Source: Pseudovirgaria hyperparasitica (Eukaryota). Taken from it: a stretch of 64,000 bases of DNA. Location: NCBI GenBank assembly GCA_010093815.1, contig ML996565.1; one strand, written 5' to 3'. This document shows positions 2 through 54,793 of this stretch, one piece after another (position 1 is the first letter of the stretch; each line of letters begins with the position of its first letter). The translations under genes were made by a program, and so were the position numbers. The notes below the pieces were generated by a model. That model was not told the DNA's origin and did no database searches. It saw nothing but the letters and a program-made list of their open reading frames with translations.

Positions 2-721
2 GCAGACAGTTGGTCCGATGCTACCAACGAGCCTTTAGGTCGCCACCGCTCAGCTCTGATTACTTCTCAGGTGGCCGCGACAGAGGTTCCATTCGAAATG
101 CCCGTCGAAGCGGATGTGTCACGTGCGACTGTTCTGTACCTCACTCATCCCATCAACAAAGCCTTGGAAAACATCTTTGGTGGCAAAGTTCGCTTCGCCG
201 CGGAATTGAGCAATACAGTAGGGAGTGCAACACTTCGAATGGACTTGACCTGGTTTTACTACCCCATACCTGGTGTAAAGAAGGTCATTGCAATTCTGGA
301 GCTTAAAAAACGAGGCATGTTGGTGTACGAGCACTGGTCCGATGCATATGCTACTTCAAAGACCATGGACAAGAAACTTAACGAGGATAAAGATACCTTC
401 TTCGTCGATAATGCCGAAAAGATGATGAAACAGATATCTGCATATGTGCTAAGACATAAAACGAAATATGCGGCACTATTCGACTGGGAAACCCTGTTTC
501 TCGGCTACTTTGCGGAAGCTGACTTCAATCGTGAAAACATAGGCGATTGGGTTGCTGGGACATATATTGGGGGAGATTCTTCGGCACGGCCCTTCAGGAA
601 AGTCGTCCTTGGATGGCTTTTGTGCGCTTGCGCGGCCGCTGGACTCGGTGGATCCGACAACACTTTGTCAAACGCACGCAACAGTCCGCAAGTGATCATC
701 TCAGGGACATCAAAGAGGTAA
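2..721 (+). CDS. PD-(D/E)xK nuclease-like protein, copy A (5'-truncated by the window edge)
   Basis: Frame is open from base 2. Clear paralog of 3909-5264 (EADVxRATxLYLTxPINKALExIF, RxDLxW, LELKKRG, KQxxAY, TKYxAL, RKxxLGWL). The motif order E...D...ExK...QxxxY fits the restriction-endonuclease-like fold. The true C-terminus may extend to 798. Confidence 0.7.
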   Translation, partial: ADSWSDATNEPLGRHRSALITSQVAATEVPFEMPVEADVSRATVLYLTHPINKALENIFGGKVRFAAELSNTVGSATLRMDLTWFYYPIPGVKKVIAILELKKRGMLVYEHWSDAYATSKTMDKKLNEDKDTFFVDNAEKMMKQISAYVLRHKTKYAALFDWETLFLGYFAEADFNRENIGDWVAGTYIGGDSSARPFRKVVLGWLLCACAAAGLGGSDNTLSNARNSPQVIISGTSKR

Positions 722-1079
722 TGGAAAATAATCTCGAAACATGTCCAGATGAGGCCGAACTTCTGCTCCTATCAACCAAGAAGAAGTGGTGGCAATGATA
801 TCAGAGGTAGTGTGAACCTGGAAAGAGAGACATATTGGCAATTTGTAGCGCATTACAATAGCAACCATGGAATTCATCAGAAGTATCTGGCTAGTATGTG
901 TCGTTGTTTAAATTCGTGCCAGATGATTAGGCAATAATGTCACCATGTTATGCCTTTTAAGTTCATCCAAAGGCGTGTCTTCTGTGAGCGTGAAGCATGC
1001 CGGCTGTTCTTTAAAGGTCTCAACTTCTCTTCGAGGCCATGCGCAGAGTTTGACTATTACGTCTCTCATAGATCAGTAC

Positions 1080-2024
1080 CTAGGACGCTTCTTGGAATAG
1101 ATGCGATCCTTTAAAGTGGTCTAATAGCCAGGCCCGGCGATCGTTCCTTGCCCTCGGAAGCCAGTCATAGGCAAAGTCACCAGCGTTAGCTGTCCACCTG
1201 TAGATAGGTGATACCGGGAGTGCTAGTCTCCTGACAACTGAGACATTAAAGTCAATGAGTACAATTCGAAGGTTCGGATCAACATAGTCGTGGCCTGTGC
1301 AAATGAAATTTCTTGGAGCTATGTCTTTTTGAGATACACCGCCACGATGTTCTATCATAGCTTCTAACTCAATGACCTTGACCATTATATTTGAGCGCTG
1401 TTCATTGGAGAGTTCCGTAGGGAGTAGCTCGTGGAGGCTAACGCCTTGGATGTATTCCATCAAGATGAGTCTAACAGGACGTTGCACCGTTTTGCCTGTA
1501 GGTGACTCCGTAGATATATAGCAGGACCAAGAGCCGTAATAGTGAGGTACATAGTTTCCGTGGAACTCTTTGAGTTCTTGATAGGCCAGTGCTTCACGAG
1601 TGTAGTCTGAATCTGCCATAGCAACGGCGTCAAATTTGATAGCGAAATCGTCTGGGATGTAGTAAAGAGGATCATAGATCTTTGCGACCATGGTTTGATT
1701 GACAACAACGATTTGAGCCCCACTCTGAATATCTTCGCTCTCGGTAAGTCTTATAGCCTTGGTGATCTCTAAGCACATTGACTTGTCCGACAGTGATCCC
1801 GCACGAGGCGGATGTGATAAGCAATACTCCAGTTGAGTCGACTCGTGCATATCAGCAGGGGGTAAAATCGTATCATTCGTGTATGGTGACCCCAGAGGGC
1901 TCGGCGCGATATGTGAGTGTACCTCGAATTTGTATCCTAAGACATAAGGATTCGAGGGCTTGTTGGGATCTGGCTTATACGGTGGCGGATTGTCGCCAAC
2001 GAAACGTCCATTCGAATGACCCAT
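1080..2024 (-). CDS. Atypical fungal protein kinase-like protein, copy A
   Basis: 314-aa intronless ORF with VAKIYDPLYY (beta3 Lys), REALAY (alphaC Glu), LILMEYI (hinge), QKDIAPRN (catalytic loop) and LIDFN; paralog of 5309-6370. Confidence 0.85.
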   Translation of the reverse strand: MGHSNGRFVGDNPPPYKPDPNKPSNPYVLGYKFEVHSHIAPSPLGSPYTNDTILPPADMHESTQLEYCLSHPPRAGSLSDKSMCLEITKAIRLTESEDIQSGAQIVVVNQTMVAKIYDPLYYIPDDFAIKFDAVAMADSDYTREALAYQELKEFHGNYVPHYYGSWSCYISTESPTGKTVQRPVRLILMEYIQGVSLHELLPTELSNEQRSNIMVKVIELEAMIEHRGGVSQKDIAPRNFICTGHDYVDPNLRIVLIDFNVSVVRRLALPVSPIYRWTANAGDFAYDWLPRARNDRRAWLLDHFKGSHLFQEAS

Positions 2025-3908
2025 GGTTAAAGGCTGTCTGCTGCTGAGGCGAGGGACAAATGATTGCTTTTATCTGAGGATAGGATATGGTTGTCACTAA
2101 GTAGAGGATTGCAAGTTTCAGTGGGCGCGGAATGTACACGTGACGTGCGGGCATGGACAAGACTTCAGTCTAACCACATTAGGTGTGGAATGGAATCCTT
2201 ATCCCACTAGGCTGCCACTGTGCCGCCGACTCCGTCTTGCACATCATTGAAGTAGAACGTGCATACATAAGACCATACAAGCGGATTAAAGTCCTACATT
2301 GTGCTCTACTATACACATTCTAGATGAACATACTTGATGCTGCATATTGCCTTCTCCATTCTTCTGGAAGTCGACCAGGGCGGCCATTTGGTATAAAGTA
2401 CCAGGTCACGTATCAGACACCAGTGTCAGATGAACCTCGAAAGACTAACCTAAACAAAACATGATTTCTTGACTATCTCCATGTCTGTAGAGTACGACTA
2501 TTCTATGTGTCTTCTCCATGCTAGCCGCAATATACCTGCTTATCTTAAGCAGATATGGGTCCTTGCAAGGCGGACAATCAAGGAGGCCCTAAGCGCCCGA
2601 GGGCCTAGAATGATTCATGCAATGGATTGCGCTTACAGTAATTACATGGGCCTTTTGAAAACTCGCTTGCGCTTGCCTTGAATTCCCTTGCACAAACCCA
2701 CCTCTGGTCTGTCTCAAGAATCAGGCTCCGAGCGCGTCCCAAAGGATCTAGGCGAAACAATCCTTTGAGTTGCGGCCTATCATCGCGTGCAGGTTCAGCG
2801 CTTGTGGTGAATCACAGGTTTGCTTATGCTGGACCTTTCTGAGTCTAGACGCTCGAGTCGCGAAAGATAAAGGGATGTCAAATATCAAAACGACCGCAGC
2901 GGAGGCGGAAGGATCGCGTTTACAAGAAAGCCAAAGTCTGGGCTATCAGTCTCATCCCACCAAGAACTTGATCTGGCGCAACCTCACATTCGTTGTTGTG
3001 GCACAGAATTTTCAGTGGGGATCAGTGGCAGCCTTGAGTTAGGTAGTAGCCTGGGACTAATGGATTCACATTCACGCTAATGCATGTTGAAATATATTCA
3101 GCGCTTAAACAAATCGTCTATAATTAGTTAATGCAGCAACTCTATCTTGCCGCCTTATTGTAGCGCTAAATACACCATTCACAAGACCTCTACGATGAGC
3201 TACACTGCGGACGGTCGCTGTATGGAACACCTCATGTGCGTCCTGCTGGCGGCTTGGCGGCGTTTCTGTATGCGAATAGTTTCAGATGACGCCTACCATG
3301 TTACTCTAATACTTGTATGATGTTCGTGGAAAGTATTTAGACTGCCTTGCAAAGACACAAATCCCCATACGCTATCCTACATTTATTTTCTCTTCTACCG
3401 AGCCCCCCCGACTGGATCATCGATAATACATTTCCAGAAACTTGTTACCGTCTCCCTTTTGCCAGCCCTGGTGGTCTATGCGAACACAAAGAGTGACTGG
3501 CGGGTAGAAATTGCATCCACCTTGTTACTCAAGCGACATTCTCATCATACTGGCATTTTCATCCTTGAGCCACTTCACTCTCGATATCCTTCAGGGACAC
3601 GAGTATCAAACATATCACAAACACTATCGCTATCCTTCTCATACGGTACCAGGCTTTACCCAGAGGCACTCGCACCAATTCTTCAGCCTAACGAACCACA
3701 TTTTCGAGCTTGCTATTTGCTGGAATCGAGATTCTGAGTAAGTCTGGTTTGTTTTTCCATTGGTTTGACTTTACCACGGGTTGATGCTGGCCTCGAGTAC
3801 ATGCAGTTCCTGTTGTAGCGAACACAGATATTCCGTGGCGGTGTGAGCTAACATGCAGTAGCCCTATAGAGGTAGTACGAAACTCGTTGTAGGCTCAATT
3901 ACCTCAAA

Positions 3909-5264
3909 ATGCCAACCACCAGCCAGTCTACGATTTTTAGTTCTTTCAATGAAGCAATGACGGACTTGAAATTGCCTGCTTCAAGGCAGAGGGCACCTTC
4001 TGCACTTACTCGCAATGGCACATCTGATCGAACAGACCCTCCAAAATTCTGGATCGAGGTAGACGCCGGAATCTGGGTTCAATTCGCACGGGACGTTCTG
4101 AATCTTCCAGAAATCAAAGAAGCATTGCGTGCATACTACCTCCCTGCGATTGAGCGCCCATTTGAAATCCATAACGAAGCGGATGTAGTCCGGGCGACGA
4201 CGTTATACCTGACCAATCCCATTAACAAAGCTCTCGAAAAGATCTTTAACCAGACCATTTCTTTCCATGCGGAACATGTAGAGAATTCAGATGGTGAAAG
4301 CGTTCGTGCTGATCTCGTATGGAAATATTCGGATCCTCAAACAAAAAAATCAACGATCGTAGCTGTTCTGGAGCTGAAAAAAAGAGGAGTCATGCAGTAT
4401 TCGCAATGGCAACAGTCCCAGACCTCGAACGATGCTCGTAGTATTGGAAGGCGGATGGAACAAATTCGAGCACAGGATCGCTCGCAAAATCCTTCTGGCA
4501 CGCTTCTTTTCTCCCATTCGCGTACACTGTCCAAACAGGCTGCTGCCTATGGCGTTAGGTTCGGAACCAAATACGTCGCGCTATACGATTATAACGACCT
4601 TTTTCTATATTACTTCAACGCCCTCAGTGCAGGAGGTGTTGGCGACATTGCTTCTGGCACATACATCGGAACGGAGCAAGCACCTGACGTCACCCAACGC
4701 AAAGCACTGCTAGGCTGGCTCGTCCGCGCATGTGCTGAGAAAGGCCTGGGAAAAGGCGGAGAAACGATCGCACCCCAGACGTTCTCCGGACCAGTTCCCG
4801 TCCCCGCCCCGGAACAAACACAAGCCACTGCAGGTGCTCAGCAACATGACACCTCGTGCGTCGCCGACTTGAGGCGCTCGGGTCGTCATCATACCCGTGG
4901 CGGACCGTCACAGGGGGGACAGTATACACAGTCGAACCAGCAGTTTACGTCTACTAGACGAGCAGCTCCAATGCCTGACATGTACCAGCAAATGACCACG
5001 GATGCAGGGTATGGTGTCCAGAAACAAGTCGACAATGCACATCTTAGAAGAGTGTACCCAAGCGCGCTTCAAGAGAGTGGGAGATATAATGAACGATCTT
5101 CACAACAAAAGAGGTCTGAAACTATGCCCAGGAAATTGGAAGTAGACAGCAAGGATCATCGCGCCAGAAAGGGCGACTACATCGGCTATGGCCCGAAGCA
5201 CTATAGTGGTAGCGAAAGAAAGGTCCCACAAGGTGAAACGAATAGGAACAAGTGGTGGGCTTGA
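3909..5264 (+). CDS. PD-(D/E)xK nuclease-like protein, copy B, with long low-complexity C-terminal tail
   Basis: 451-aa ORF, ATG in CAAAATG context. NEADV...RADLVW...VLELKKRG...KQAAAY motifs are shared with copy A. The Q/R/S/G-rich tail ends NKWWA. Confidence 0.75.
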   Translation: MPTTSQSTIFSSFNEAMTDLKLPASRQRAPSALTRNGTSDRTDPPKFWIEVDAGIWVQFARDVLNLPEIKEALRAYYLPAIERPFEIHNEADVVRATTLYLTNPINKALEKIFNQTISFHAEHVENSDGESVRADLVWKYSDPQTKKSTIVAVLELKKRGVMQYSQWQQSQTSNDARSIGRRMEQIRAQDRSQNPSGTLLFSHSRTLSKQAAAYGVRFGTKYVALYDYNDLFLYYFNALSAGGVGDIASGTYIGTEQAPDVTQRKALLGWLVRACAEKGLGKGGETIAPQTFSGPVPVPAPEQTQATAGAQQHDTSCVADLRRSGRHHTRGGPSQGGQYTQSNQQFTSTRRAAPMPDMYQQMTTDAGYGVQKQVDNAHLRRVYPSALQESGRYNERSSQQKRSETMPRKLEVDSKDHRARKGDYIGYGPKHYSGSERKVPQGETNRNKWWA

Positions 5265-5308
5265 CGGTATCAACTTGATTGGCAGGACAGAAAAGTGTGT
5301 ATCGGTAT

Positions 5309-6370
5309 CTATAATTGCATTTCAGGATTTTGCTCATCCAGGTCCTGTGCTATAAGCCCTGCCGGAGGTGGTTGATATGATTGACAAGTCGCAAATTGAT
5401 GCCATAGCCATTTTTGTAGTTCATCAAATTCGTCTGGAAGCCAACCGCCTAGGAACTCGTTTCCAATGTAGGGCCATCTTGTGACTGGAGAGATTGGTAA
5501 TTCGAGGCGGTGTACTACGGAATTATTGAAATCAAGCACTACAATACGTAAATCTGGGCCTTCAAGGTCGTCTCCAACGCAAATGAAATTTCGAGGCGCT
5601 ATATCGCGATGGCTAACACCAGAATTGAAGTTGAAGACGGACTCAACTTTGATGACCTTGCGCATAACATTGGTGCGCGCCTTTTCTGTGAGGTCGTGGG
5701 GATTCATATCCAGAAGCCGTCTGCCTTGGATATGCTCAATGAGTATGAGACGTACAGACCGCTGTAAGATCCCGGTGGGAGTCTGTGTCGGTATTTCGAA
5801 AGTCCAAGATCCATAGTAAGTGGGTACCAGGGCGCCCCAGAATGGCTCCAGCTCTTGATATGCAGCCACTTCACGAGTATAGTCCCGATCTGCAATAGCC
5901 GTGACGTCCTTCCTATCGCCTCTATCACCTGCATCGTAGTAAAGTGGATCGTAGATTTTGGCGACCATAGCATTATTGACGAGCAATATTTGGGCACCTC
6001 GACGGATAGTTCCATAGTCGGAGGGTCCGGTACCTTCATGCACCTCGCTCTCCTCAAGGCTTGCTGTCCCAGATACTGCTAAAGCTCCCGTTATTGTTAA
6101 AGACATGGTCTCTTGACCCAAATAGCCTTCAAGTGGTGGGCTAGCAAGACAAAATTCCAACTGCGTCATCTCATGAGACCCGGACGGTGGATCAGGACGT
6201 CGACCAGCATACGGAGCTTCGAGTGGCTCCGGGGCCACATGCGATTGAACTTCGAGGCATTTCCCAATGGCGTACGGAAATTCCAGTATCTTTGAATCAG
6301 GACGATGACGCGGTAAGCACAGCCATTTGGAATCCCCGGGTACAGGCTCTCGTTGATCTTCGTTGGACAT
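5309..6370 (-). CDS. Atypical fungal protein kinase-like protein, copy B
   Basis: 353-aa intronless ORF with VAKIYDPLYY, REVAAY, YYGSW, LILIEHI, HRDIAPRN and VLDFN. Confidence 0.88.
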   Translation of the reverse strand: MSNEDQREPVPGDSKWLCLPRHRPDSKILEFPYAIGKCLEVQSHVAPEPLEAPYAGRRPDPPSGSHEMTQLEFCLASPPLEGYLGQETMSLTITGALAVSGTASLEESEVHEGTGPSDYGTIRRGAQILLVNNAMVAKIYDPLYYDAGDRGDRKDVTAIADRDYTREVAAYQELEPFWGALVPTYYGSWTFEIPTQTPTGILQRSVRLILIEHIQGRRLLDMNPHDLTEKARTNVMRKVIKVESVFNFNSGVSHRDIAPRNFICVGDDLEGPDLRIVVLDFNNSVVHRLELPISPVTRWPYIGNEFLGGWLPDEFDELQKWLWHQFATCQSYQPPPAGLIAQDLDEQNPEMQL

Positions 6371-6822
6371 GCTGTAGTGTCGGAAGAATGACCGGAAACG
6401 TCAGTAAGGATGCCTGTCGTTCAGTATTGTTTTCAAGTCCGAGAGCACCGGAGAACTATGTTCTTGCAAGTAATAATGACCTAGAACGTTGAGAACAGAG
6501 TTGTTTCAAAGCAAGGCTAAGAAAGAAACACTAGCATTTATATCTTAGCGAAGGTGTTGAGGAGTTGGCAAAATGGTGTCGTGTAACTGTTTTCCAGAGC
6601 TGATTACTAATATTGCCATACGCGCACTACTAAGTAGGTTAGAGGCAGCGTCCGACTGGAGTTCACCAACATCACCTCACCAGCGGACGTGGGTTGGAGT
6701 TAATGAAATAACCACAACGCCTGGTCCTGTTCGACTTCATCTCTGACTACGACGCCCATTAGCCCGTCATCTCTTGAAGTTCTCTCGTCACACTATCTTC
6801 GCTCTTGAATTGCAAACCCAAT

Positions 6823-7726
6823 ATGCCTTCATCCGGTAAGTCGTTCGGACACTACCCACTGTGATTAGGAGCGCCAGACTCAAAGTACGAGCCATTTCTA
6901 ACCATTCCAAGGCGCGCTCCCACCCTCGGTCGAGAAAGCCTACTACCGCAAATGTATCGAGCTCCGCAGACGTATCAACGAGATTGAAGAGCATAACGAT
7001 GCCACGCGCCTCCGCATCAAGCGGCTGAACCGCTCCGTCCTGAAGATGCGCCTCGAGCGCGCGTTCCTCCTCGAGCAGCTCCAGCAACGAATGGACTACA
7101 ATGTCGATCACTCAGACAACAGCACCAGCCCGCCTCCCACTGTGAGTAGCCTCGCGCCTCCACAACCACCAGACCTACCGCTACCACGAGACAACCGACT
7201 AACCGCCTCCAAGCCGCAAGACAAGCCTCTCCGTTCAAAGCGCTCGCACCGCAAGACGACTCCCACCGGTGCTCCGCCGTCAAGCCAACAGGGCGCTGCG
7301 TCGCCTCCGCCATCGTCCTCACATCACTCGCATGCCCATGCCCTTGCGCCTCATGTGCCACTGTCCTCTGCGCACTCAACTCCTGATCCGTCGGGTCGCA
7401 TGCGCTCGGAGGTATTCTACCCACCGACCAGCGAATTTGCAGCGGCGGTGAATGGTTCAAGACCCATCCCGCCAACAAATCAATACGAGCCATCACCAGC
7501 CGCACCAGGAACCTTATACGACGAGCGTCGCAGTGTGTCGACAGCAATGGAAAACGGAGGTGACAGGGGCCACAGTGGTCGAGGGTATGCAGCTGGAACG
7601 ACCGGCTCAGATGTCAGGACTGATGCGAATGGAGAAAGACGCGTCGCCCGAGATGAGGAGATGGCGGACGCGGAAGCGCCTCGAGAGGCAGGAGCACTTG
7701 GAGGCTTCACAGCCGTCAATCGATGA
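6823..7726 (+). CDS. INO80 complex subunit F-like (Nhp10 N-terminal-like) coiled-coil protein
   Basis: Spliced model: ATG 6823, intron 6836-6911 (GTAAGT..CTAAC..AG), probable in-frame intron 7142-7213. Gives PPSVEKAYYRKCIELRRRINEIEEHND...KMRLERAFLLEQL, a conserved fungal coiled-coil. Family name recalled from memory. Confidence 0.65.
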
Positions 7727-8758
7727 TTATACTTCAATTTCCGGAAACTTTCATCATGAGTCTACTAGGGAAAGGGAACATGGTTATTTGGGTCGGCGTT
7801 ACAGCATACTGGGAGCTAGCAGCGATGGCGCATGACTGACCCTCGAAAGCAAAACGGAAGTGCAAAGGGGCGTTTGTAAAAATATACATTCTATTATACT
7901 GGCATTGATGGGGCAATCTATAACAGGTTCATCAATATATCGGCACATCACTCCAATACCGACAGTACCACTATCAAATCAAGAATTGCCATAGTCAATC
8001 GTGGAAGCTCTCCAGTACGGTGAGCACTTAGAACACTCAGTGGCACGATGGTTTCCTCATTCGCCCGATTCTCATACAGAATCCTCGCCATAGGTCGGAA
8101 TCCTACATGCCATACTTGCTGAAAATAGGTCCCTTGATTAAGTCATATCAAACACTCATTGGCGCATCGTCCAATGCAGGGCCCTTGACAGCGAACCAAC
8201 AGCTCGGCTTATACTACAGTCTCGCGAGAAGACTTTTAGGGCCTCGACTACGTTGTCTTGTCATCTTCACAAATTGCACTTGGCATCTCCGTGCCATAGT
8301 GACTAGCTACTTTCTAGCTCAAGGTGAAACAACAATACTTGGCGCTCAATTCAAGTCTTCTAGTGGAGCAATGGAGCGTTTCATTTCGGGATGTACAACA
8401 TAGATATGTACATTAATTGCAGTATGGCCCTTTGCCTGAACGATGGGTGCATTCTTCTGTGGAGTGTCCCGGTAGCATTGGTAGCGTGAGATAAGGACCA
8501 TTTCACCCTATGCGTGAAGACGAATTAAGGTAGTGTTGGGAGCCTGCAACCTACGTATGTACGCATAGCATTAAGTATGTTGTCGGAAGGTATTTCAATT
8601 CATAGAGGAGGTAAGCTTCAATTCGCTAGGGAGCTTTGACCCTTCACTACCCGAATCCATCTATAGATCTCCGCCCCGCGCTTCGAGCTTCCCCGGCGAA
8701 TCTCGAATTTTTTGTACCGTGCAAGTACAACGCCGGAAACTGTTGACCATATTCCACA

Positions 8759-9733
8759 ATGCCCCGTGAGACCGAAGTTTCGCTCAACGAGCGCGACTTT
8801 ATACTAAAAGCATTGAGCGAGCAAGTCCGACTTGACGGACGTAAATTCGACGCGTTCAGATCTTTGGAACTCTCTTTCGGACAAGAGTATGGCGTCGCAG
8901 ATGTTAAGCTCGGCAAGACAAGGTACGACCAGACACAGGTCCAAGATGTGGCCATAGTTTGACGTGTATAGAGTCATCGCCCGTATTTCGGCTGAAGTGA
9001 CAGCTCCATATGTTGACCGAAGGTTTGATGGCATCTTCACCATCAGCACTGAATTCTCACCTATGGCATCGCCTGCGGTCGAAGTCGGACGGTAAGCTAC
9101 CTGCTCATGATGCTTGGGGTATGCTAACTTCGATCTAGACAGAACGACGCCGAAGTGCTCCTCTCGCGCATCCTCGAAAAATCCATACGTCGAAGCTCTG
9201 CTCTTGATACCGAATCGCTCTGTATAATCGCTGGCGCAAAATGTTTCTCTATTCGAGCAGATATACATGTGGTCGACCATGATGGAAGTTTGATAGATGC
9301 ATCATGTATTGCGCTCGTGGCCGCACTTCAACACTTCCGTCGACCGGACGTTTCAGTTGAAGGCGAGAATGTGACAGTCTACAGCATCAGGGAGAGAGAG
9401 CCTGTACCGCTGGCGATGCTACACCACCCTCTGTGTATAACGATATCACATTATCACTCCGGCGATGTACTACTTGTTGATGCTTCATTGGCAGAAGAGC
9501 AGGTTCGCGAGGGCCAGGTGATCATATCGATGAATAGACATGGAGAGTTATGTCACATTGCACAGTATGGTGGAGTCCCTATCGACCCACTGCTGTTGAT
9601 GAATTGTACGAGCATGGCGTTTGGAAAGGTGAAAGAACTCACAAACACGATTCATGAACAGCTAGAAAAAGATGCAAAAGAGAGAGACGCGGGAGGTCTC
9701 ATTGCGGAACTGAGCGCAGAGAATGAACGGTGA
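8759..9733 (+). CDS. rrp45: Exosome complex component Rrp45 (RNase PH-like)
   Basis: RLDGR motif, RRSSALDTESLCIIAG, DHDGSLIDA, HFRRPDV and C-terminal AELSAENER; two introns (~8923-8972, ~9092-9138). Confidence 0.93.
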
Positions 9734-10474
9734 GCTGCCAACTGGGAATATTTCCGGCGCGCAGTTGAACGACTCGATACTCCGTGCCACCTATTATGAA
9801 CATGAAAACAACCAAATTTGTAGGGCAGAGAGATAAGACGGCGGATGCCAATACCCTACTTCGGGTGAGACGAGACTACAGTACGGCTTGGTTTGCACGA
9901 TTGCCATACCCAAGGACATGCCGGAGCACAGGACGAAGTCCCAATGTCCGACCCGAATATAGATGGGTATAGGCAACTTGCAAGGGGCACAGACTTGGTC
10001 AAGGCCTGACTTCGGTGAGAATCTAGAGTCGCCCTGACGTCCGTCGTAGTAATCAAAACCCTAGTCAATCGAAACGCAAGGACCGGGATCCGAGCTCCAG
10101 GCTGGGCTTGATGACGGAAACGCAGGTCAGCGTATTTTGTCCACATTCCCATGACAAATGCATTGACGCGCATGGTTCGATTGGTGACCTTGCCTACTTG
10201 AATTCACTGCTGCGCGATTGCGACCTGCCAGGAATAGTATTTGCAACAGTAACTTTAACCTGGCGAAGACTTCGTCATTGGCAGCCGGTGCCCGGGCGCA
10301 TTCAAATTAAAAAATCTCGGCGCCACTAAGTAGTGCCCGCTACCTAGTGACGTCTATACTACCTAGGTAGTAAACATCTAAATATAATGAGACATCCGCA
10401 TCCTTTTTTTGAGCTCTTTATCATTTGATCACTACCCACAGTCACATCCCCATCTTAGTACTGCAACATCTAAA

Positions 10475-11440
10475 ATGACTGATAAGCTAATCCCTTCCGA
10501 TCCATCCCGAGTGATGGTCATTCGCGATGTCATCCCAAACGTGATCACCACTTTGTCTACTCCGTTTCTACGTTTCGGAAAGATAAAGATTGGCGGTAGA
10601 GGCACACTCGGTAAGCGCATGTGTCAGTTTAATGAACTCAGGCGCTGATGTAGGATAGTTCGCCTACAGAGTGGCTCTTTGGCAGTATTCTCTCCCACTG
10701 CTTTAACTCCCGAGGTCAAGGAAAAGGTGTCAAGCCTCGGAGGCAGGGTCAAGTACATCGTCGCCCCCGACTTGGAGGTAGAGATCTGTGAATCGTCATG
10801 AACGTATATCCATCTGACGGAATCGCAGCATCACATCTTCCTTGGACCATGGGCACAATTTTATCCCGGGGCCAAGGTCATTGGAATGGAGGGTTTACGA
10901 GAGAAGCGCGCAAAGCAAGAGAATGAAGATATTCCATTCGCTGTAACTTTCACATCAAAAGACAAGGACTCTGTCAAGATTGATACCGAGGTAAGATTGG
11001 GATCTCACGGCTAGAAGCAGAATCTCACGTGCATATAGTTCGATGCTGAATTTGACTATGAATACGTCCCAGCACATGCGAACAAGGAACTGGTATTCAA
11101 CCACAAGCCGTCCAAGACACTGATTGAGGCCGACCTGATCTTCAATATGCCAGCCACGGAGCAGATGAGTAGAACCAGCGAGTCAGCGACTACGGGTATC
11201 CTCACCAAGATCTGGACATATCTAACTAATACGAATGGAACTGCTCTCGCGCAGAAGCGCCTAATATGGTATGGCATCAGCGCAGGTGATAGAACAGGTT
11301 ATGCGAAGAGCATGGCCAAGATCAATGGTTGGGACTTTGACCGGATCATTCCGTGCCACGGAGACGTCATCGAGACTGGAGGAAAAGGTATCTTCCAGAA
11401 AGTGATGCAGTGGCATCTCAAGCTTGCAGAGAAACATTGA
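10475..11440 (+). CDS. DUF4336 family (metallo-beta-lactamase-like fold) protein
   Basis: Spliced exons give PFLRFGKIKIGGRGT, VFSPTALT, YIVAPDLEHHIFL, NKELVF, ADLIFNMPA and WDFDRIIPCHGD; three canonical introns. Confidence 0.8.
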
Positions 11441-11819
11441 ACTAGCGAGGCGTGTACAGTTGAGGTAGTGAGCATGCGTGCCTTTGGTCGAGGAGTTCCG
11501 GGGAGCGTTGCATGAAGAGGTGCCAGGTGGGCTTGCATCAAGATACCATGTTGGGGTTGCAGTTCTGCGCAGTATGAGAATTGTATGTGAACAATACATT
11601 AGATCTTTGTTACAGTCCATGTACTTTAAATGTAAAAGTCAACACACGAATGGGTAGCGCTCGTTTCGTCATTCATGCTGGCTCTCCTTGGCGGTCGCGA
11701 CGCGCTCCGGGACGCTATTATCGGTGCGGACTCCCGAGACATCGTCAAGGACAACTGCATAACCGGTACGCATAGTGTCCAAAAGATCACAGCAGGTCCA
11801 GCATGTCTCAGGCCCAATA

Positions 11820-14800
11820 ATGGATTTTGTGAGTTTACTACGAACATCTGCATTGATTCCTAACAGTTGAACAACAGTTCACGCGCCTCATCGGCGGCGT
11901 GTCGACTCCGAAGAAACAGGCGGCATCTAACAACCCCCAACAGCGTCTCGCACGCTTCAAAAAGGTGTACAATCAAGTTCTGGTCAGTCGTGGAGCATGA
12001 AAACGTCGTGATAAATTCAAGACTAATCGATCTGTTGAACAGCAAACCTGGCATAAGTCATCCGCCCTGCACTCCGCTCCCATCGCCGCAGAAAACATCC
12101 GTATCTCCTTCCAACGCTTAACGCATATACTCAACGACGAAAGCCGATCGCCGTCTCCTCACCTATGTCTGTCTTTCGCTGCATCCTCGCAGATCTACAC
12201 TGCTGTCGCACGTATTGCAGCGACCGCGCAAAACGAAGGCATAGTCAGAGAAGCTGTCGCTCTGTTCGCTGCCCTCATTGACAGCGAAGAGGAGGACTTC
12301 CTAGAGAATGAGAACTTCTCACGCTCTCTCATGAACTTTATCGGCAGAACTTCTACATCTGGAACAGTCATTATTGGTGAGGATGTTGAATCAGAGATTG
12401 TGGAACTGCTGTTTGGTATCGCAGCCAAGATTCGTCTCCAACCGGAAATTCTCCCAGTGTGGTTCACGTCCAAGGAGAAGGGAGATGAAGTGGCCAAGCT
12501 GGATCAAAAAGAGATTGACTTCGCCGGTGTGACACAGAAGGATGACTTTCCACTCTGTTACCAATTGATTGATCATGTCCACCACGAAGGCCGAATAGGA
12601 GATTTTGCAAGGACCGGCTTACTTTACATCTTTGAGTCTGCTTCAAAGTCTCGCGAGCTCGAAAAATGGATTGTCGAGAGTGATCTGTCGACTCTAATGG
12701 CTAGTAGCCTTGGAGCTTTATACAGTCAGCTTAGCAGGTATGTCTCTAGTCCTTACACCATAGTCCGATCTGACAGGTACAGAAAATTGTCAATACTACA
12801 TCCAAAAACAAATCTACCCATCATTCTCTCTTTGTCAGACTACATTGATCTTCAGTCGTCATCTGAAGCTGAGAGTGTATGGTCGTCAGACTTCAAGCTC
12901 CACATGGACACATTTCTGTCGTTCTTGGCCTTCTGGCAAGACGTACTGGAACACTGTAGATCGATCGACGTTCGACAGACTCTGATCGATCACTTCCAAA
13001 TTCTATTTCTACAACAACTCCTGTTCGTTTTCCGGGCTTGAATACTCCTTTGACTCTCGCTGATCCTTGTCAGGTACCCCTCTCTACTGGAATCTTCTGA
13101 CGTAGACGGGGGTTCTTCAGTCGCAGTGTTGACCTATCTTGGACGTATATTACACGCTCTCGACCATCCAGAGCTCATTCATATGATTCTCCACTACCTC
13201 CTTGCTCTCTCAGATCCTTTCGACACGAAAATAAGGTCTCCAAGATCACCTTTGGCAGCAAAACGACGGATGTCACTTATGGCCATGAGCCAGCCAGCCC
13301 ACGAGGATGATCAAATGAACCCATCTTTATTTAACCTTGTAGACTTGATACTGACCAGTACGCAATCTTCAAATCCACAGACTGTAGTCGCAGCCTTGAG
13401 ACTCGTGACGGTCATACTAAGCAAGAATCACCACTACGCGGTTGGCACGCTAGTAAAAACCATCGATATACAGTTGAAAGAGCCGCAGAGAACTATAGGG
13501 GCTTTAAACGCTGAAATGGAAATGTATCTATCGGTAGCCATTGCGTGTGGCGGTGAAAGTGGTGTTGATGAAGCGTATGCGACACATTTGAAAGACATGC
13601 AAACTATGCTAGAGTCGCATCCTTGCTCGCTGCGACAGATTTCTCTCGACAACGCGACCCCGATCACGGAGCATTTCTCCGTCACAGTGCCCCCGCAGGT
13701 CGGACTACACTACCTCATCCCCGACGACCCACTGCTCGTCTCTTTGCTCCGAGTTGTTGACAAGTTCCTGCTGAACGACGTTGAAACAAATCTGGCCCTG
13801 GTAGAGGCCATTACGAGTCTCGGCTCATGTGCTCAATTGAGACTCGAGAACTGGCTTGCAGTTGACCCTTCAAAGTATGAGTTTGACGAAGAAGAGGAAG
13901 AGCATGACAGGCCAGAAGACGTCATAGACGAAGCTCTTCGAAACATATATATCGCTCGACAAACTCCCCAGTACAAGGCGAAATTTACGCCACCCCTTCT
14001 TAAATCACTCCAAGGTCTACAGGCTCAAATTGACCAGCTTCGACTGCATATACCCGATCTTGATTACCACATCGAGAACCGTAAGCAGACATTTCACGTC
14101 GACGAGGAGATCATGGACGCCATGGCCGGACAACCAACGCCGTCCATGTCTCACGCCTCGTCCAGTCGTCCCTCTGCCGAGCTCCAACCTGGGCCATGGA
14201 ATGCTCAGATTCCAAAGCACGTCCGCGATGCACCCGCCACGCCATCCCGGTCACATTCGCCGCGCGGCAGAAAGGAAAATCTTGCGACGCCACAGCGCTT
14301 ACCATCTGCAACTGCATCACCTGCGCCTTCACGTCTCGGTGGTCGCACACTTGTGAGCAGTCCTACACCTGGCAGCGGAGATCGCTCACGCGCGATAAGC
14401 CCTGCTCCTACTGCCAAGGCACGGCAGCCGGGCGAATCCACCATGATGAGTGGGCTGATGACTGACGTCAGTGAGAATGTGGCTGGGGTATTGGATGGGA
14501 GACGAGAAGTGCGGTTCAAAATCACTAGAAAGAGGATTTCCGTTGAAGTGGTGCGGAGTCCCAATGACCAGACACGAGTGAAGGTCGGACCTACTGGCTC
14601 CCCTACTACATTACAGTACACTTCGATTCAAGGGCCCCAATCTAGTACCGACGGCCAAGACAAAAGGTCTACAAGCCCGGAGGATGCCGGGACTCCAAGC
14701 GAGACTATCGAGAATCTCGAGACTCAGGAAAAAGGGGCAAAACATACACTAGAGTCGCCATCAGAGGCCGGTAATGACGACGATGACGATGACGATGACG

Positions 14801-26299: not shown

Positions 26300-27661
26300 A
26301 TGACCCCTAACGCTTCCTCGGCCTCGGACGCAAAGAGCGCTCCCGTAAGCGATATGGTTAAGGTTGTCAATTCATTGGCTTCCTAGCGTGTCCGTCGGAA
26401 ACTACGCAAGTGAACTGACCACCAACAGATTGCCAACGATGACACTCCACTTACGCCTCCTTTCTCCAAGCATGTCGAATTGATCCCGACCTCCGATACC
26501 CTCTGCATCACCCACAGACCTGGTCCGCCCGAGATTGTCCAGGTCACTGCTGGCGCGGAAGAGAATGAATACTATGGTGTGAGCAATCATGGAAGAGAGA
26601 ACAGCCCTAATGGCCTCGGTATACTTGGCCGTCAAGGCGCGTCTCCGAGACCTCCGTCTACCACCCGCATAGACACGACTGTGAGGTCTCCTACGTCGCC
26701 GAAGCAGCCTGTAGATATACTCGACTCTCTCCCGACCATAGCCTATGACGCCAACAAGCAAGTGTTCGAAGTGCGGAGCCAGATCAATGACTTCTTGGTT
26801 CAGGATCTAGACACGAGTCGGCTGAATGCCATCCACGGTATACTATGGATGGCAGGTCGACCGCTGAATGCCAGGCAGCTGCATCGATACGTCATGCTTG
26901 ACATACGTATCTTGCGCACCGAGCAGACGGATATGCACGTCCTGAGAGTCTCAAATCGCATGTTTGTCAAGCCTCTGCCGGCCTACCTCCTGAGCTACGA
27001 TTTCTGGAAGAAGTACCTCTGTGGTCCGCCCACTGGGCAAAGCGAAGACGACCGCGCCTTGCATAAACGAGCCTGTGGTCTTCTCATGTCATATGTGTGG
27101 CTCATCCGCTCTGAACTCGACATGAAGATCGCCAAAGACGAGCACCTTGTCCCGAAAGATGTCAATTGGCACTGGTGGAAGGCTTTTGTTGCTGACTTGC
27201 TTGCGGACGGCCACCTCGATGCCAACTCCCTCAAGCAATGCGACATGAGATACCACTACGGTGAACTGCGTCTCTCCCGCATCAACACCATATACCGCAT
27301 CCGTTTCTTCCACACCCATTTCATTCGTGGATACCTCTACGGCTATAATCGCTACGTCGTCTTCTTCCAACGCAATTTTGGCTGGATGCTCGTTATATTT
27401 GTATATTTTTCACTCGTGCTGTCGGCCATGCAAGTCGGAGTTTCGGTACCACCGCTGCAGGATAACGTCGCTTTTCAGCGGGCATCTTACGGGTTTGTGG
27501 TGTTTTCCATCGTTCTTGTTGCAGCCATTGTGGGCATCATCGGTCTCCTTTTCGTTGCCATCTTCGCCATAAATACTATTCTATCTATAAGACATAGCCT
27601 GCTGCAGTCGAGGGAGAGGAGGAAACTGGCCAAGGCGAAAAAGGGAGAGAAGCATGCTTAA
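26300..27661 (+). CDS. DUF6601-like fungal membrane protein
   Basis: ATG 26300 with phase-0 intron 26345-26428; LDTSRLNAIHGILWMAGRP, KPLPAYLLSYDFW, YGELRLSRIN and LSAMQVG; two C-terminal TM helices. Confidence 0.75.
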
Positions 27662-27943
27662 TGCCAAGGATGGTATACGGTTGATGCTATGATGCCATGG
27701 AAAAACCTGATTTCGCTCGAAATTGTGCTTGCATGCTACACACGTGAGTATGTGTCTACTTGGCGCGTTTTCCGAACGGGCGCCTTAAGCTGACACCTCG
27801 CTTTGTTCTATGACAACAAAGTACGTTACACAATGTCTGGAATGTTCGCACATGCAGAAGTAAACTAGGTATATAACTCCCACTCTCTCGATACTCTGCA
27901 GTAAGCGACTTGTTCTACTGTCTCACACCCGCTATCATACACG

Positions 27944-29776
27944 ATGCAGTCTCGAATCGAGACCCTCCCTGGAGAGCTCTATAATATGATCATCGGCTAT
28001 CTTGATGCCACCACTCTCTCAAGACTACTACAGTGTAACAAAGTACAAAGGGAACGTATCGAGCCGAAACTATACGCTACGGACGCCGCCCGTCGGTGTG
28101 CAATGCGCTGGGCGTGCGAGCAAGACAACCCAATCGTCATACAGAGAGCCGTTAAATACGGCGCAGACGTCAGCTACCTGTACCCTGAAAAACGTAACGA
28201 GAGCTACGGAAGAGCACAGCCCACGATATCGATTGCCATCACCCACTGCAGTCTTGAAGCAGTAAAATGCTTGATCAGCCTCGGAGTACAGATCGAATGT
28301 CTCGGGTATGAGCACGCCCATGATTTACTGTGGAAGCTACGATCTCCGAAACGGTGGGATATATGCCAGCGCTTTGTGGACGCTGGACTTGGTTCGACAT
28401 TCCTCATGCTCCGCGAGCATTGTCTGACGCCGACACTGGTCGAGAAGATTGTTAGCAATGGGCCGAATGCAGTGCAAGATGCTACTTGGCTCATTGATCA
28501 CGGAGCTTGTGTTAATGCTATTGCTTCAGTGTACTTTCTCGGCTCCGAGCGTCGCCGATATGCGTCGCCGCTGTCTGCTGCAATACTGGCTGACTCGAGA
28601 CCTCTCTTCGACCTGCTCCTCGCACGGGGAGCTGATATCCACAGTTCGCTACATAACATAGTCGAATCCGCCGAGGCTCTGCATATCCCTATATTTGCAG
28701 CCTGCTATGCGGCATCAAGTCATGCGAGCCTGAAATGGGTGGAAACCTGTCTTGATGCTGGCGCTGACATCAATACGGGCGCTCACTTGCGAATGAGACT
28801 TCCCACCGACATGCCCGGTCAATGCAACTATCTGCAGCTTGTGGCAGCGTACCTCGTCATGGACCATTCATGGGATGAGAATGCGGTGTGCTCTGTAAAG
28901 GACGTAGCGACCTACCTCTTTGACCGCGGAGCGACAATCAGGCCTGCTGAGCCGCCACCGCGACGCCCCAGCAGCGCAATGTACGCAGAAATGTACTCGC
29001 CATGTCTTGCGCAGATGATGATCGGGAAATGGACGCCTGCGATACTGCGTAACCGTATGTTCTTCGACGTGATAACCAGGCTAGTCGAGCTTGGAGATGC
29101 ACGAAACCATGTAGAAGACCTTTTTTCCCTCAGAAACGAAGCATTAGGACGATCATTTCACTGCTGGCGTCTTCCCGATAACCCTACACTGCGACTCCGC
29201 ATCGTAAACGCCTGGAAGGCCTTCCTCGACCTCATCCTCGACGACTATTTCGAGAATGCCTCGGCGGTGCAGAGGCCGATGTCCTGCACCGAACTCCTGT
29301 TCAGCACCGTGTACCAAATGGGCACACAGCCCCAACAGAGAGACCACATCATATACGTCACAGCGGAACACCTCGTGTCCCGCGGCGGGAATCTGAACGA
29401 CGACGGCAGCGAAGCGCCCATCCTCCACCAGCTATGCCTGCTCGTCAACCGGCGCTACACCCACCAATTGCCCTCTCAGCGGGTAAACCAGCACGCCGCG
29501 GACGAGAAATCCTACTGCGCCGCAATCGAAGACTTGGTCGACTTCCTGCTGTCCCTGGGTGCCGATCCGATGATCGATGCCCGCGGTAAGGGGTTTGACC
29601 GGGTTCGACGTGGGACCGTCACGGCGGTTGATTCCGTCGGTGAAGGGTTCAGTCGGCCTGAGGTGACGGCCGTGAACCTGTTGCTTGAAGATATAGAGAT
29701 TGGGGATCCTGATACGATGCTGTTGGTGCGGCTTGCGGGTCTTTGTGATGTTGCTGCACGTAGGCAGGCAGAGTAG
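27944..29776 (+). CDS. F-box + ankyrin-repeat protein
   Basis: 610-aa intronless ORF; N-terminal LPGELYNMIIGYL (F-box-like); repeated ankyrin ends KYGADVS, DHGACVN, ARGADIH, DAGADIN and SLGADP. Confidence 0.8.
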   Translation: MQSRIETLPGELYNMIIGYLDATTLSRLLQCNKVQRERIEPKLYATDAARRCAMRWACEQDNPIVIQRAVKYGADVSYLYPEKRNESYGRAQPTISIAITHCSLEAVKCLISLGVQIECLGYEHAHDLLWKLRSPKRWDICQRFVDAGLGSTFLMLREHCLTPTLVEKIVSNGPNAVQDATWLIDHGACVNAIASVYFLGSERRRYASPLSAAILADSRPLFDLLLARGADIHSSLHNIVESAEALHIPIFAACYAASSHASLKWVETCLDAGADINTGAHLRMRLPTDMPGQCNYLQLVAAYLVMDHSWDENAVCSVKDVATYLFDRGATIRPAEPPPRRPSSAMYAEMYSPCLAQMMIGKWTPAILRNRMFFDVITRLVELGDARNHVEDLFSLRNEALGRSFHCWRLPDNPTLRLRIVNAWKAFLDLILDDYFENASAVQRPMSCTELLFSTVYQMGTQPQQRDHIIYVTAEHLVSRGGNLNDDGSEAPILHQLCLLVNRRYTHQLPSQRVNQHAADEKSYCAAIEDLVDFLLSLGADPMIDARGKGFDRVRRGTVTAVDSVGEGFSRPEVTAVNLLLEDIEIGDPDTMLLVRLAGLCDVAARRQAE

Positions 29777-50654: not shown

Positions 50655-52631
50655 TCAGATAATGGTAAGCTCTGTCTCATTGACTCCGTCAAACGCTGCC
50701 GCCATCTCTTCAGCTCCGTCTGGATTCTGGCATGCGATCGCAACCCTCTGATACGTCAACTCCTCACCAATACAACTCTGGAGTAACAAGCCTCGTGTCT
50801 CGGGTCGATCTGTGCGCTGTGCGACTAATAGGAAATATAAGCGGTCTTTGTCTACCTCATGCGGGTCAACATCCCAATACACAACCATTGATGTGTCATT
50901 ATGTCCAAGTCGTGCAAATGTCACACGATCACCGTGATCAAGGGAGCGAATCGGGAGTGTTTTACCTCGAAGTCGAAGCATGCCGGAGCTGATCCTGCCG
51001 AAAGGGTCAGGACGAGACGGGGTACAGTGCACATCGATGTCATGAATGAAGTATTTGAGCTCAAAAGGATAGATGTCGTGGCCACCGCTCCATCCGAAAC
51101 TAATCGTCGTTTGTTTCTGTGTGTTTTTACTCAGATCTGCACAAAACGGGGACCACGTTGGGGATCCATTGACACGACGAGGATCACGTCGGACTGTCGG
51201 TATAGCTGTCCATAATAGTGACCGAGCCAGGTCTTTCTTCCAGAGTCCGCCAATGTACTCGCTAGCCCCGTGTGATTTCAAGTACGATGCGAGCCCAGCT
51301 ATAGCCGGTAATCGATCCGATTCGTAAGTGGTATGTCGCGAGAAGTACTTTGAAAGTAACTCTAACCACAAAAGACTGGAACTTTCTGGAATACTATGAC
51401 TGAAAGGACCTTCCAGATATTCTTCCTTGGTACTGTGTGGCCTGAAAATTCTTTCTCGGCGGATGCACTCACTCTCAGCTTGGGAATGATCCATGATCAT
51501 GCATTCACAAGCGACGGTAGAACTGCATTCCCAGTATATTTCTGTGCGTGTAAAGTGTACAATCTTGCTTGCTAGAATATGTTCTTGCAGTGCCCATGCC
51601 CTGCATGCCAATGGCGAGTTTAAGAGTGCCATACTGTGCCAATGCAACATAATATTGTTGCCAATGGGGGTTACATTGACGTGGATCTTACTCTCGGCTC
51701 CAGAAGAGTCGTGTACCGTGCCAACGTGCATAGATTGATGCACGGATTCTCCTAATTTGTTGAACAGTCCACCAGAGGAGTCCTTCGCTTGTGAGGCTGC
51801 CAACACTAGATGTGCGTCATAGTACACTTTTCCCATCCGAGAGACTTCGGCTTCCCAATCGTCAGGGTCGTCTTGTATGATGCACAGACTATCGATCCAT
51901 AAGAACCGGATATTTAGCATCCTGCAGAGTTCTACAGAGTCTCTAAAGGTCTGGGGGAGCCTGGTCATTGCTATAGAGGAACAATGTTCCTCCAGGTTCT
52001 TTCTAGTCGTCTGCAAAGGCATATGTGTGCCCCAACAGTGACTCAAGGCTGCATACTGGCCCATGCATCCAGACGATATGTGAAGAGACACTTTATCTTC
52101 AGACGTTTTGCCGACATCGATGACTCGTGTCGGTAACGAGGAAACGGGTCTATGGCAGGTCGTATGTTCGTTAACACACTTGGACATCCAACCACCCACA
52201 AGGTCCTGAGCGATATCTTGTCGGGCGTCGGCGATTTCTCGACCAGGCTTCACAAAGTCCCAAGGACAAGGTTGTGAGGTTGGTGGATAAAAGAACTGAA
52301 TAGCAAAGGTGTTGGTGGGAATATCGCTCGATGATCCCACACCTTCCCTCAGGAATATACAACCTGAGTCTCCATTGTAGTCGGAAACAGCATAGTCGGC
52401 CATGTTGACGCCTCTCGGCGTCGCACTCAAGCGAACTAGTACAGCCAAGCATGCTTTGTAGATAATCTCACATCTTGGGCAGCCGTTTTGAATACCTTTC
52501 TTGAGATCTGCCCATGTGCGAGCAAGTCTACTGGAGTCACAATCACATTGAACGGTCTTCGTAGGCCAAGTGGTTTCGAACACGGCGTGACCTGTCAGGT
52601 CAATAGGTTGTGGAGTCAATTCTAATGCCAT
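50655..52631 (-). CDS. HET-domain (heterokaryon incompatibility) protein
   Basis: LPTRVIDV, YAALSHCWG, LPQTFRD, LWIDSLCIIQDD, WEAEVSRMGKVY, RAWALQE and DRLPAIAGLA; intronless. Confidence 0.93.
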   Translation of the reverse strand: MALELTPQPIDLTGHAVFETTWPTKTVQCDCDSSRLARTWADLKKGIQNGCPRCEIIYKACLAVLVRLSATPRGVNMADYAVSDYNGDSGCIFLREGVGSSSDIPTNTFAIQFFYPPTSQPCPWDFVKPGREIADARQDIAQDLVGGWMSKCVNEHTTCHRPVSSLPTRVIDVGKTSEDKVSLHISSGCMGQYAALSHCWGTHMPLQTTRKNLEEHCSSIAMTRLPQTFRDSVELCRMLNIRFLWIDSLCIIQDDPDDWEAEVSRMGKVYYDAHLVLAASQAKDSSGGLFNKLGESVHQSMHVGTVHDSSGAESKIHVNVTPIGNNIMLHWHSMALLNSPLACRAWALQEHILASKIVHFTRTEIYWECSSTVACECMIMDHSQAESECIRRERIFRPHSTKEEYLEGPFSHSIPESSSLLWLELLSKYFSRHTTYESDRLPAIAGLASYLKSHGASEYIGGLWKKDLARSLLWTAIPTVRRDPRRVNGSPTWSPFCADLSKNTQKQTTISFGWSGGHDIYPFELKYFIHDIDVHCTPSRPDPFGRISSGMLRLRGKTLPIRSLDHGDRVTFARLGHNDTSMVVYWDVDPHEVDKDRLYFLLVAQRTDRPETRGLLLQSCIGEELTYQRVAIACQNPDGAEEMAAAFDGVNETELTII

Positions 52632-52799
52632 CACGCAAGCTAAAGAGTTGTTGTTTGGTGCTATAGGCAAACGCAGAAAACCTCTTCATGCCCCGCGTTA
52701 ACCCGTGGTACACATGTTGAGCCAATCACGCGCCGCAGAGACACATCGTCAGAGTCTTGTAGATCTATCCAATGCCATTATCCAAGTAATAATTACTCT

Positions 52800-54362: not shown

Positions 54363-54793
54363 GATAACAATGGAAGGGAGGAATACAGAGGAGCAGCCAC
54401 TGATATAGCAAGATGGGGTGCAGTTAAGGGATCTGAAACAACACGAAAGTAGATGACGGTCGGTCATCATCCGGTGTCCCGTAATGGAACAGCTTCCAGG
54501 CGTGGACTGGGCCGATCGCGCAAATGGGTAATCCCATGATGACGAGGTAGTGCAAGCAACGGAACTATGCAATGATTGCCACAAACCATCTGCTACAGAA
54601 ATGAAGTAATGCCATTTGAAGATGATTTGTCGAGACCGATGGGTCACGTTATGAAGCAAAAGTATTGCAGCCTAAGGCAGCAACATGTGTCGACGACTGA
54701 GACAGCCATGGATTCCAGGTATCCTTCATGCGATATATCGACGCAAGTATCATTACACCAAGATAATACAGTTTTCAGGGGTATCCTCTGTCC

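Follow-up and report, generated by a model that had tools for sequence, protein, structure and literature searches.

A conserved gene pair of Ascomycota encoding a nuclease-like protein and a small kinase, duplicated in tandem in Pseudovirgaria hyperparasitica

Background

The Spok proteins of Podospora, with the FuSpok proteins of Fusarium, unite a nuclease and a kinase in one polypeptide. In the account by Vogan et al. (2019, PMC6660238), Spok3 is divided into three domains. Domain 2 carries a PD-(D/E)XK motif (residues 219–240) followed by a QxxxY motif (294–298) and has the V. vulnificus HsdR protein as its best HHpred match, while domain 3 is a kinase that is nearer to the eukaryotic-like kinases (ELKs, of the Kdo/WaaP, Bud32, Rio and ABC1 kind), such as Kdo kinase. 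Killing is abolished by the K240A substitution and the kinase domain is required for resistance. Nuclease-dependent DNA damage in both E. coli and yeast is reported by Urquhart & Gardiner (2022, PMC9972908). The system described here is a pair of neighbouring genes, one for a nuclease-like protein (N) and one for a small kinase (K), found in a 64,000-nucleotide stretch of contig ML996565.1 (GenBank assembly GCA_010093815.1) of the fungus Pseudovirgaria hyperparasitica. This whole stretch is referred to as the window, and it contains each gene twice, in the order N1, K1, N2, K2. The N/K pair is a real, conserved two-gene nuclease–kinase module of Ascomycota. The finding is more general than the window, in which the pair has been duplicated and is diverging.

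The original prediction, made from the letters of the window, was of a split Spok-like toxin–antidote system. The nuclease and kinase features do agree with those of Spok3, whereas the single-polypeptide architecture and the Cys/His cluster of Spok have no counterpart here. Like Spok and FuSpok, N/K combines an HsdR-like nuclease that has QxxxY with an ELK-like kinase that has the catalytic Asp. The HsdR structure that Spok3 matches best is also among the top fold matches of N2 (3h1t_A). The nuclease motifs are also spaced almost alike, with 21 residues from D219 to K240 and 54 from K240 to Q294 in Spok3, and 22 from D135 to K157 and 53 from K157 to Q210 in N2. Both systems occur in fungi with a patchy distribution, and both tend to duplicate and to diverge fast.

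Spok is one polypeptide, whereas N and K are encoded by two genes, one on each strand. None of the 295 stored family proteins matches the profile hidden Markov models (HMMs) of both families, as a fused N–K protein would. No relative of N came up at E<=0.01 in the size range of 600–2000 aa, although this negative carries little weight, and eight of the longest among the best 150 matches to the N profile have low-complexity tails and no fusion. The C-x3-C-x13-C-x5-H-x7-H cluster of Spok is present in 0 of 294 stored proteins in its strict form, and the four proteins of the window lack a loose form of it as well. With regard to the N-terminal coiled coil and domain 1 of Spok, the model of N2 has only short helices before residue 53 and shows no long helix at its N-terminus. 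The N/K locus lies among core genes within the window, rather than in a Spok block or a Starship-like region. The one hint of direct homology to Spok is among the ESM-Atlas neighbours, where the rank-16 cluster (score 0.93) has 11% of members with PF27653 (SPOK2_N); no SPOK2_N match turned up in the Pfam scans, for which the inclusion of PF27653 in the scanned copy of Pfam was unchecked.

Other systems that couple a nuclease to a second protein or domain are more distant. Crinkler (CR) effectors such as PiCRN8 have a restriction-endonuclease (REase) domain fused to a kinase, and according to a review (PMC5289972) the kinase is thought to regulate the nuclease. The C-termini of these proteins resemble N/K in having a REase-fold domain, thought to be toxic, coupled to a kinase-like domain. 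Crinklers are nevertheless single secreted proteins with an N-terminal header or Ubl trafficking domain, while N and K are separate proteins. Neither a Pfam domain nor a header of the Crinkler type was seen at the N-termini of N and K, in a general Pfam scan that had no dedicated CR-header profile.

Type I (HsdR) and type IIG (BpuSI, DrdV, MmeI) restriction enzymes have N-terminal nuclease domains that share the fold, the D..ExK motif and QxxxY with N. However, N is a stand-alone eukaryotic protein without the helicase/translocase or methyltransferase module of these enzymes. HsdR has a short spacing between ExK and QxxxY, and in N the ExK strand is separated from the QxxxY helix by approximately 40 residues more than in HsdR and the type IIG enzymes. 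Bacterial type II toxin–antitoxin and restriction–modification modules are also like N/K, being neighbouring pairs of a potentially harmful nuclease and a countering protein. The proposed antidote in N/K would be a kinase, as opposed to a binding antitoxin or a methyltransferase, and N/K is eukaryotic and monocistronic, with a transcript for each gene, unlike the bacterial modules. A two-gene nuclease/kinase module of fungi is not described in the literature that was searched; Zhang et al. 2016 (NAR 44:3513) may cover related architectures.

Linkage of N and K

The adjacency of N and K is conserved, apart from possible exceptions that are discussed below. A scan of metagenome contigs with an alignment of N found five loci (L001–L005), of which L002, L003 and L005 are only 1.3–1.8 kb and too short for linkage to be judged. 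Linkage of the homologues in other genomes had been proposed as a check on the original prediction, and in both of the loci that have flanks a K gene adjoins N, in a divergent, head-to-head orientation. In L004, K is at 5860–7425 (-) and N at 7802–8797 (+), and in L001, K is at 7834–8991 (-) and N at 9812–10756 (+). In addition, there are eight cases in which an N and a K are on contigs of the same size (31814, 28004, 28425, 12200, 8090, 35182, 9011 and 123179 bp). Exact agreement in size of eight pairs of contigs is hard to explain unless N and K share a contig. These eight pairs are spread over three clades, and the pairs in L001 and L004 belong to a clade other than that of the window.

Within the window the four open reading frames (ORFs) are arranged as predicted and at the coordinates predicted (Table 1). 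N1 is cut by the start of the window; its full-length protein, P0006, is encoded on this same contig of 3.44 Mb and has 286 aa, and approximately 47 codons, plus the 5' untranslated region (UTR), must therefore lie to the left. The protein-database entries for N2, K1 and K2 are identical to the ORF translations. Both N/K pairs are convergent, with 358 bp from stop to stop between N1 and K1 and 44 bp between N2 and K2. K1 and N2 also make a divergent pair, 1.9 kb apart, so that the boundary of the cassette is ambiguous and the "convergent cassette" is one of two ways in which the array can be cut. No further copies or remnants of N or K were found beyond these four in a six-frame HMM scan of the entire window (E<=10).

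Table 1. Coordinates of the N/K array in the window
Feature	Position	Strand	Description and evidence
N1	2–721	+	3' 239 codons and stop of a PD-(D/E)xK/QxxxY nuclease-like gene; ORF reading
K1	1080–2024	-	Small ELK-type kinase, 314 aa; ORF and RNA contigs, no intron
K1–N2 spacer	2025–3550		K1 5'UTR (to ~2107), thinly covered intergenic stretch, 55-nt element
N2 5'UTR exon	3551–3737	+	RNA contigs; X4 contigs extend back to 3508
N2 5'UTR intron	3738–3861	+	124 nt, GT..AG; joint 3737->3862 in X3 and X4
N2	3909–5264	+	Nuclease-like gene, 451 aa; folded domain ~residues 1–285, then ~160-residue tail
K2	5309–6370	-	Small ELK-type kinase, 353 aa; HRD..N catalytic loop, DFN motif; RNA cover to 6487

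Nuclease-like family

Neither N1 nor N2 matches a Pfam model at E<=1. Outside the window, 13 relatives were recovered by a word-based search. The N-family HMM, searched against 1.84 billion representatives, has 808 matches at E<=0.001, of which 245 reach E<=1e-30. The 808 are representative clusters at 50% identity, and the family is a large fungal one. Most of the proteins among the best 150 are 250–300 aa in length, and the median of the stored members is 283 aa.

Residues E90, D92, R133, D135, E155, K157, Q210 and Y214 are invariant in all 15 aligned N sequences. When 64 sequences are compared, Q210 and Y214 are the only columns that are fully invariant, with the remaining signature residues conserved in at least 90%. 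This E...D...ExK...QxxxY arrangement is the signature of PD-(D/E)xK nucleases, with D135, E155 and K157 as the catalytic D...(D/E)xK and E90 as the acidic residue of helix 1. The corresponding motifs EADV, R.DL.W, LELKKRG and KQ..AY are present in both N1 and N2, and are found at residues 83, 126, 146 and 190 of the full-length N1 protein.

A confident AlphaFold2 (AF2) model of N2 residues 1–300 has a predicted local distance difference test (pLDDT) score of 82.4 and a predicted template modelling (pTM) score of 0.86. Foldseek, which had been proposed as a check on both proteins, gave a clear answer for K (see below) but returned no match for the N2 model at E<=0.001, the best HsdR row having an E of 0.11. 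The fold of N was instead placed by VIA-align against 48,161 PDB chains, where seven of the top ten matches are restriction-endonuclease or REase-like domains. The top match is BpuSI (3s1s_A, Z 9.0, 148 residues aligned, root-mean-square deviation 3.5). The V. vulnificus HsdR fragment 3h1t_A follows with Z 6.7 and 18% identity, and further matches are DrdV (6.5), a putative restriction-endonuclease-domain protein (6.3), EcoR124I HsdR (2w00_A, 5.9) and EcoRI (5.5). A mitoribosomal protein is interleaved among the restriction enzymes at Z 7.1. Z scores of 7–8 are common with VIA-align, and the fold call therefore rests on the structural match together with the invariant motif.

Weak Pfam matches among 64 members of the family are to HSDR_N (4 of 64, best 9.6e-4), HSDR_N_2 (3 of 64) and MmeI_N (2 of 64), with one each to PDDEXK_4 and PDDEXK_9. 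A sequence-profile search of the PDB with N gave matches at chance level alone (E>=0.55), and PADLOC and NCBIfam scans gave nothing meaningful. By its structural matches and invariant motif, N has a restriction-endonuclease fold of the PD-(D/E)xK kind, with an alpha-beta-beta-beta-alpha-beta core, nearest to the nuclease heads of HsdR and type IIG enzymes. The original prediction had read N as nuclease-like, and QxxxY with the HsdR and BpuSI fold matches supports that reading.

The tail of N2, from about residue 290 to 451 (window 4780–5261), is unmatched in N1 and in all of the aligned relatives. Just its first ten or so residues were modelled, with low pLDDT. Unrelated low-complexity tails are borne by the distant N members P0149, P0190 and P0236.

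Kinase family

The K family gave 349 matches in the word-based search, and those with names are from Eurotiomycetes, Dothideomycetes, Sordariomycetes and lichen fungi. Five residues are invariant in all 34 K sequences compared: K138 (in VAKIYDP), E167, D256, N261 and D280. These correspond to the beta3 Lys, the alphaC Glu, the Asp and Asn of the catalytic loop, and the Asp of DFN, and all of them are present in K1 and K2. Both proteins have the motifs VAKIYDP, [KR]DIAPRN and [IL]DFN. The catalytic loop of K1 (1323–1334) has QKD in place of the H-R/x-D that is found in K2 and most relatives, with both the catalytic-loop Asp and Asn and the Asp of DFN retained.

The profile of the K family matches solved kinases in the PDB down to 1.1e-8. 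The AF2 model of K2 (pLDDT 83.8) has the WaaP structure 6dfl_A as its best Foldseek match (6.9e-7), followed by many eukaryotic protein kinases, all with a probability of 1.00. Only some 70 residues follow DFN, and the substrate-binding part of the C-lobe is therefore missing in K, as it is in small ELKs. In the ESM-Atlas, the neighbours of K are clusters of fungal proteins that are partly labelled as Kdo, ABC1 and APH, and the matches in PADLOC and NCBIfam are weak and to generic kinases only. Sequence and model agree that K is a small kinase of the ELK kind with a complete ATP-binding and catalytic set. Its earlier identification as a kinase is borne out by the intact catalytic residues, the kinase fold and the WaaP match.

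Duplication and divergence

N1 and N2 are identical at 89 of 222 residues (40%, E 1e-46), and K1 and K2 at 148 of 315 (47%, E 5e-97). Both paralogies are far above chance, and at 40–47% protein identity the copies are saturated at synonymous sites. The estimate in the original prediction that the copies are roughly half identical is slightly high for N. It had also held that all four frames are open and keep their catalytic motifs, which is confirmed by a check of the motifs in all four.

A maximum-likelihood (ML) tree built from 30 N proteins places N2 as the sister of N1 (97/96), and their end branches measure 1.69 and 1.28 where the median is 0.76. K1 and K2 are likewise sisters (99/97) in the tree for 32 K proteins. 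Their end branches are 0.76 and 0.98 compared to a median of 0.35, and the sister clade of this pair is P0019/P0020/P0021. Grouping of N1 with N2 is open to inflation by long-branch attraction, but the K tree and the remnants of DNA similarity agree with it. These remnants have a spacing of 4069–4277 bp and are two in number, 77–178 with 4146–4247 (71%) and 1573–1631 with 5850–5908 (73%). Their spacing fits a single tandem duplication of a unit of approximately 4.2 kb (4.1–4.3 kb). The sister pairs and long branches in both trees show that N and K were copied as a unit in this lineage and then diverged fast, and the joint duplication that had been predicted is thus supported by both trees and by the DNA. 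Both partners of both copies have changed at approximately twice the rate of their relatives, with the loss of no catalytic residue.

For the presumed N and K partners, the clades of one tree correspond to those of the other and make up three deep groups. Congruence of the trees had been put forward as a check on the pairing. The clades do match, and this fits a long co-inheritance of N and K, but the species tree alone would give the same pattern.

Transcription of the array

RNA evidence is from assembled contigs of two runs (X3 and X4) that were made from another sample of this organism. Neither run is on record as RNA, but GT..AG joints are present in these contigs at the array and at neighbouring genes, and identify them as RNA assemblies. 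One X3 contig covers N1 and K1 (1–2107) and extends 367 nt to the left of the window, and the equivalent X4 contig covers 1–2061. A second contig covers N2 and K2, aligning at 3551–3737 and, after the intron, at 3862–6487. This cover indicates that all four genes are transcribed and that their coding parts are free of introns. The intron in the 5'UTR of N2 ends 47 nt upstream of the ATG. Expression levels cannot be ranked from contigs of this kind. There are no differences between the contigs and the window, which makes them uninformative on polymorphism or on presence and absence across isolates.

With the stops of N2 and K2 44 bp apart and one RNA contig across both, their convergent 3' ends must overlap as natural antisense. 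N1 and K1, with their larger gap, are likewise joined in a single RNA contig. In the spacer between K1 and N2, a 55-nt element at 2653–2707 recurs elsewhere in the same genome with 5 differences (record 2 of X1), and in three runs it is flanked on both sides by loose ends.

Possible function of the pair

The best-supported mechanism, by analogy with Spok and the REase–kinase Crinklers, is that K controls a potentially toxic N, and this may be given a probability of roughly 0.4. N would be an intracellular PD-(D/E)xK nuclease of approximately 270 aa and a potentially genotoxic effector. K would restrain it by phosphorylation, either of N itself or of the substrate of N. The logic of the fused Spok nuclease and kinase, which is also that proposed for the Crinklers, would then be split into two polypeptides that are inherited as neighbours and expressed together. 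In P. hyperparasitica the pair was copied once in tandem, and the copies diverged fast while keeping every catalytic residue. To read N as a poison and K as its antidote is plausible but unproven. A complex prediction for K2 with N2 scored 0.00 in both runs, which had no controls, and is neither for nor against binding.

Several observations weigh against control of a toxic N by K. For three N homologues on contigs of 5.5–6.3 kb (P0005, P0007 and P0011), there is no K on a contig of the same size among the 120 listed. In Diaporthe batatas, N (KVR01_005751) shares a 3.05-Mb contig with the sole listed K (KVR01_006456) at a distance of 705 locus tags, where an unlisted K paralogue may be nearer to N. 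Orientation of the pair varies; the convergent arrangement that was predicted is true of both pairs in the window but is not conserved, L001 and L004 being divergent. K falls below the Pfam gathering thresholds, with K1 scoring 22.5 bits for ABC1 against a threshold of 22.9 and 18 for Pkinase against 31.7, and K2 scoring 14.6 and 13.4, respectively. The array is beside core genes (including those for INO80F, an RNase PH subunit and SIN1), and there is no obvious mobile island to its right within the window. Finally, the fast divergence of the copies could come from relaxed constraint rather than from new specificities.

A stronger version of the proposal is that N/K represents the Spok principle as a widespread two-gene system of Ascomycota, in which each nuclease would be a genotoxic poison that its cognate neighbouring kinase alone neutralises, and tandem duplication with joint fast divergence would lead to new, mutually non-protective specificities. 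This is improbable on the present evidence. It is similarly improbable, as part of the same reading, that such specificities could serve as meiotic drivers, post-segregational killers or determinants of allorecognition.

The main rival to a poison and antidote is a cooperative pair of enzymes, in which K would activate or target N, or both would act in turn on nucleic acid, without addiction or killing. This is possible, if somewhat unlikely, and the same can be said of the roles that such a pair might have in defence against mycoviruses, transposons or foreign DNA, in nonself recognition, or in the processing of DNA or RNA. The linkage, co-expression and intact active sites fit a cooperative pair as they fit a toxic N controlled by K, as does the regulation of nuclease by kinase that is proposed in the Crinkler review (PMC5289972). 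A HET-domain gene in L004 and a NACHT-ankyrin NOD-like receptor (NLR) gene in L001 are beside N/K, and the array in the window is flanked by core genes, which would also suit such roles. However, ascomycetes have HET and NLR genes in such numbers that their nearness to N/K may be chance. Lineage-specific duplication with acceleration of both partners is more typical of systems of conflict or specificity than of housekeeping, and K has a protein-kinase-like fold without the P-loop features of a nucleic-acid kinase.

Adjacency without a shared function is distinctly unlikely. N and K would in that case be kept together by chance, through a bidirectional promoter region or by hitch-hiking, and the array in the window would be a mere segmental duplication. 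The differences in orientation among genomes and the separation of N from K in D. batatas are in keeping with this, as is the breadth of the group of small K-like kinases in fungi, seen in the 349 matches and the Atlas clusters. Against it, N is by K in both readable foreign loci, which are of a clade differing from that of the window, the eight coincidences of contig size extend over three clades, and the clades of the partners match in both trees. Decay of one or both copies into functionless duplicates, which would account for end branches at twice the family medians and for the QKD of K1, is highly unlikely given frames that are open over 286–451 codons, the retention of all invariant family residues and the transcription of all four genes.

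Control of N by K, if it is the function of the pair, would bear on Spok directly. Two papers (PMC9972908, PMC12693581) describe as an open question how the kinase domain of Spok cancels the killing that its own nuclease domain causes. Separate nuclease and kinase polypeptides, in two diverged copies in one genome, would make this question directly testable. With such control, a large fungal family without a Pfam match would gain a function, and two-gene modules of the toxin and antidote type would extend from bacteria, where they are common, to filamentous fungi. Should N/K be a cooperative module of defence or repair instead, it would still be a new conserved nuclease–kinase system.

Genomic surroundings

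To the right of the array are ordinary genes, encoding INO80F, an RNase PH subunit, a RAI16-like protein, a protein kinase, DUF6601, ankyrin, SET, PRCC and SIN1 proteins. The DUF6601 ORF is at 26414–27658 and the ankyrin-repeat ORF at 27905–29773. Approximately 44 kb from the array are a HET-domain ORF (50658–52685, -) and an F-box ORF (52803–54671, -). In the metagenome loci, the HET-domain gene of L004 is located after N (10172–11908), and in L001 the NACHT/NPHP3_N protein and an ankyrin-repeat ORF, together a NACHT-ankyrin NLR, are located before K (483–5184).

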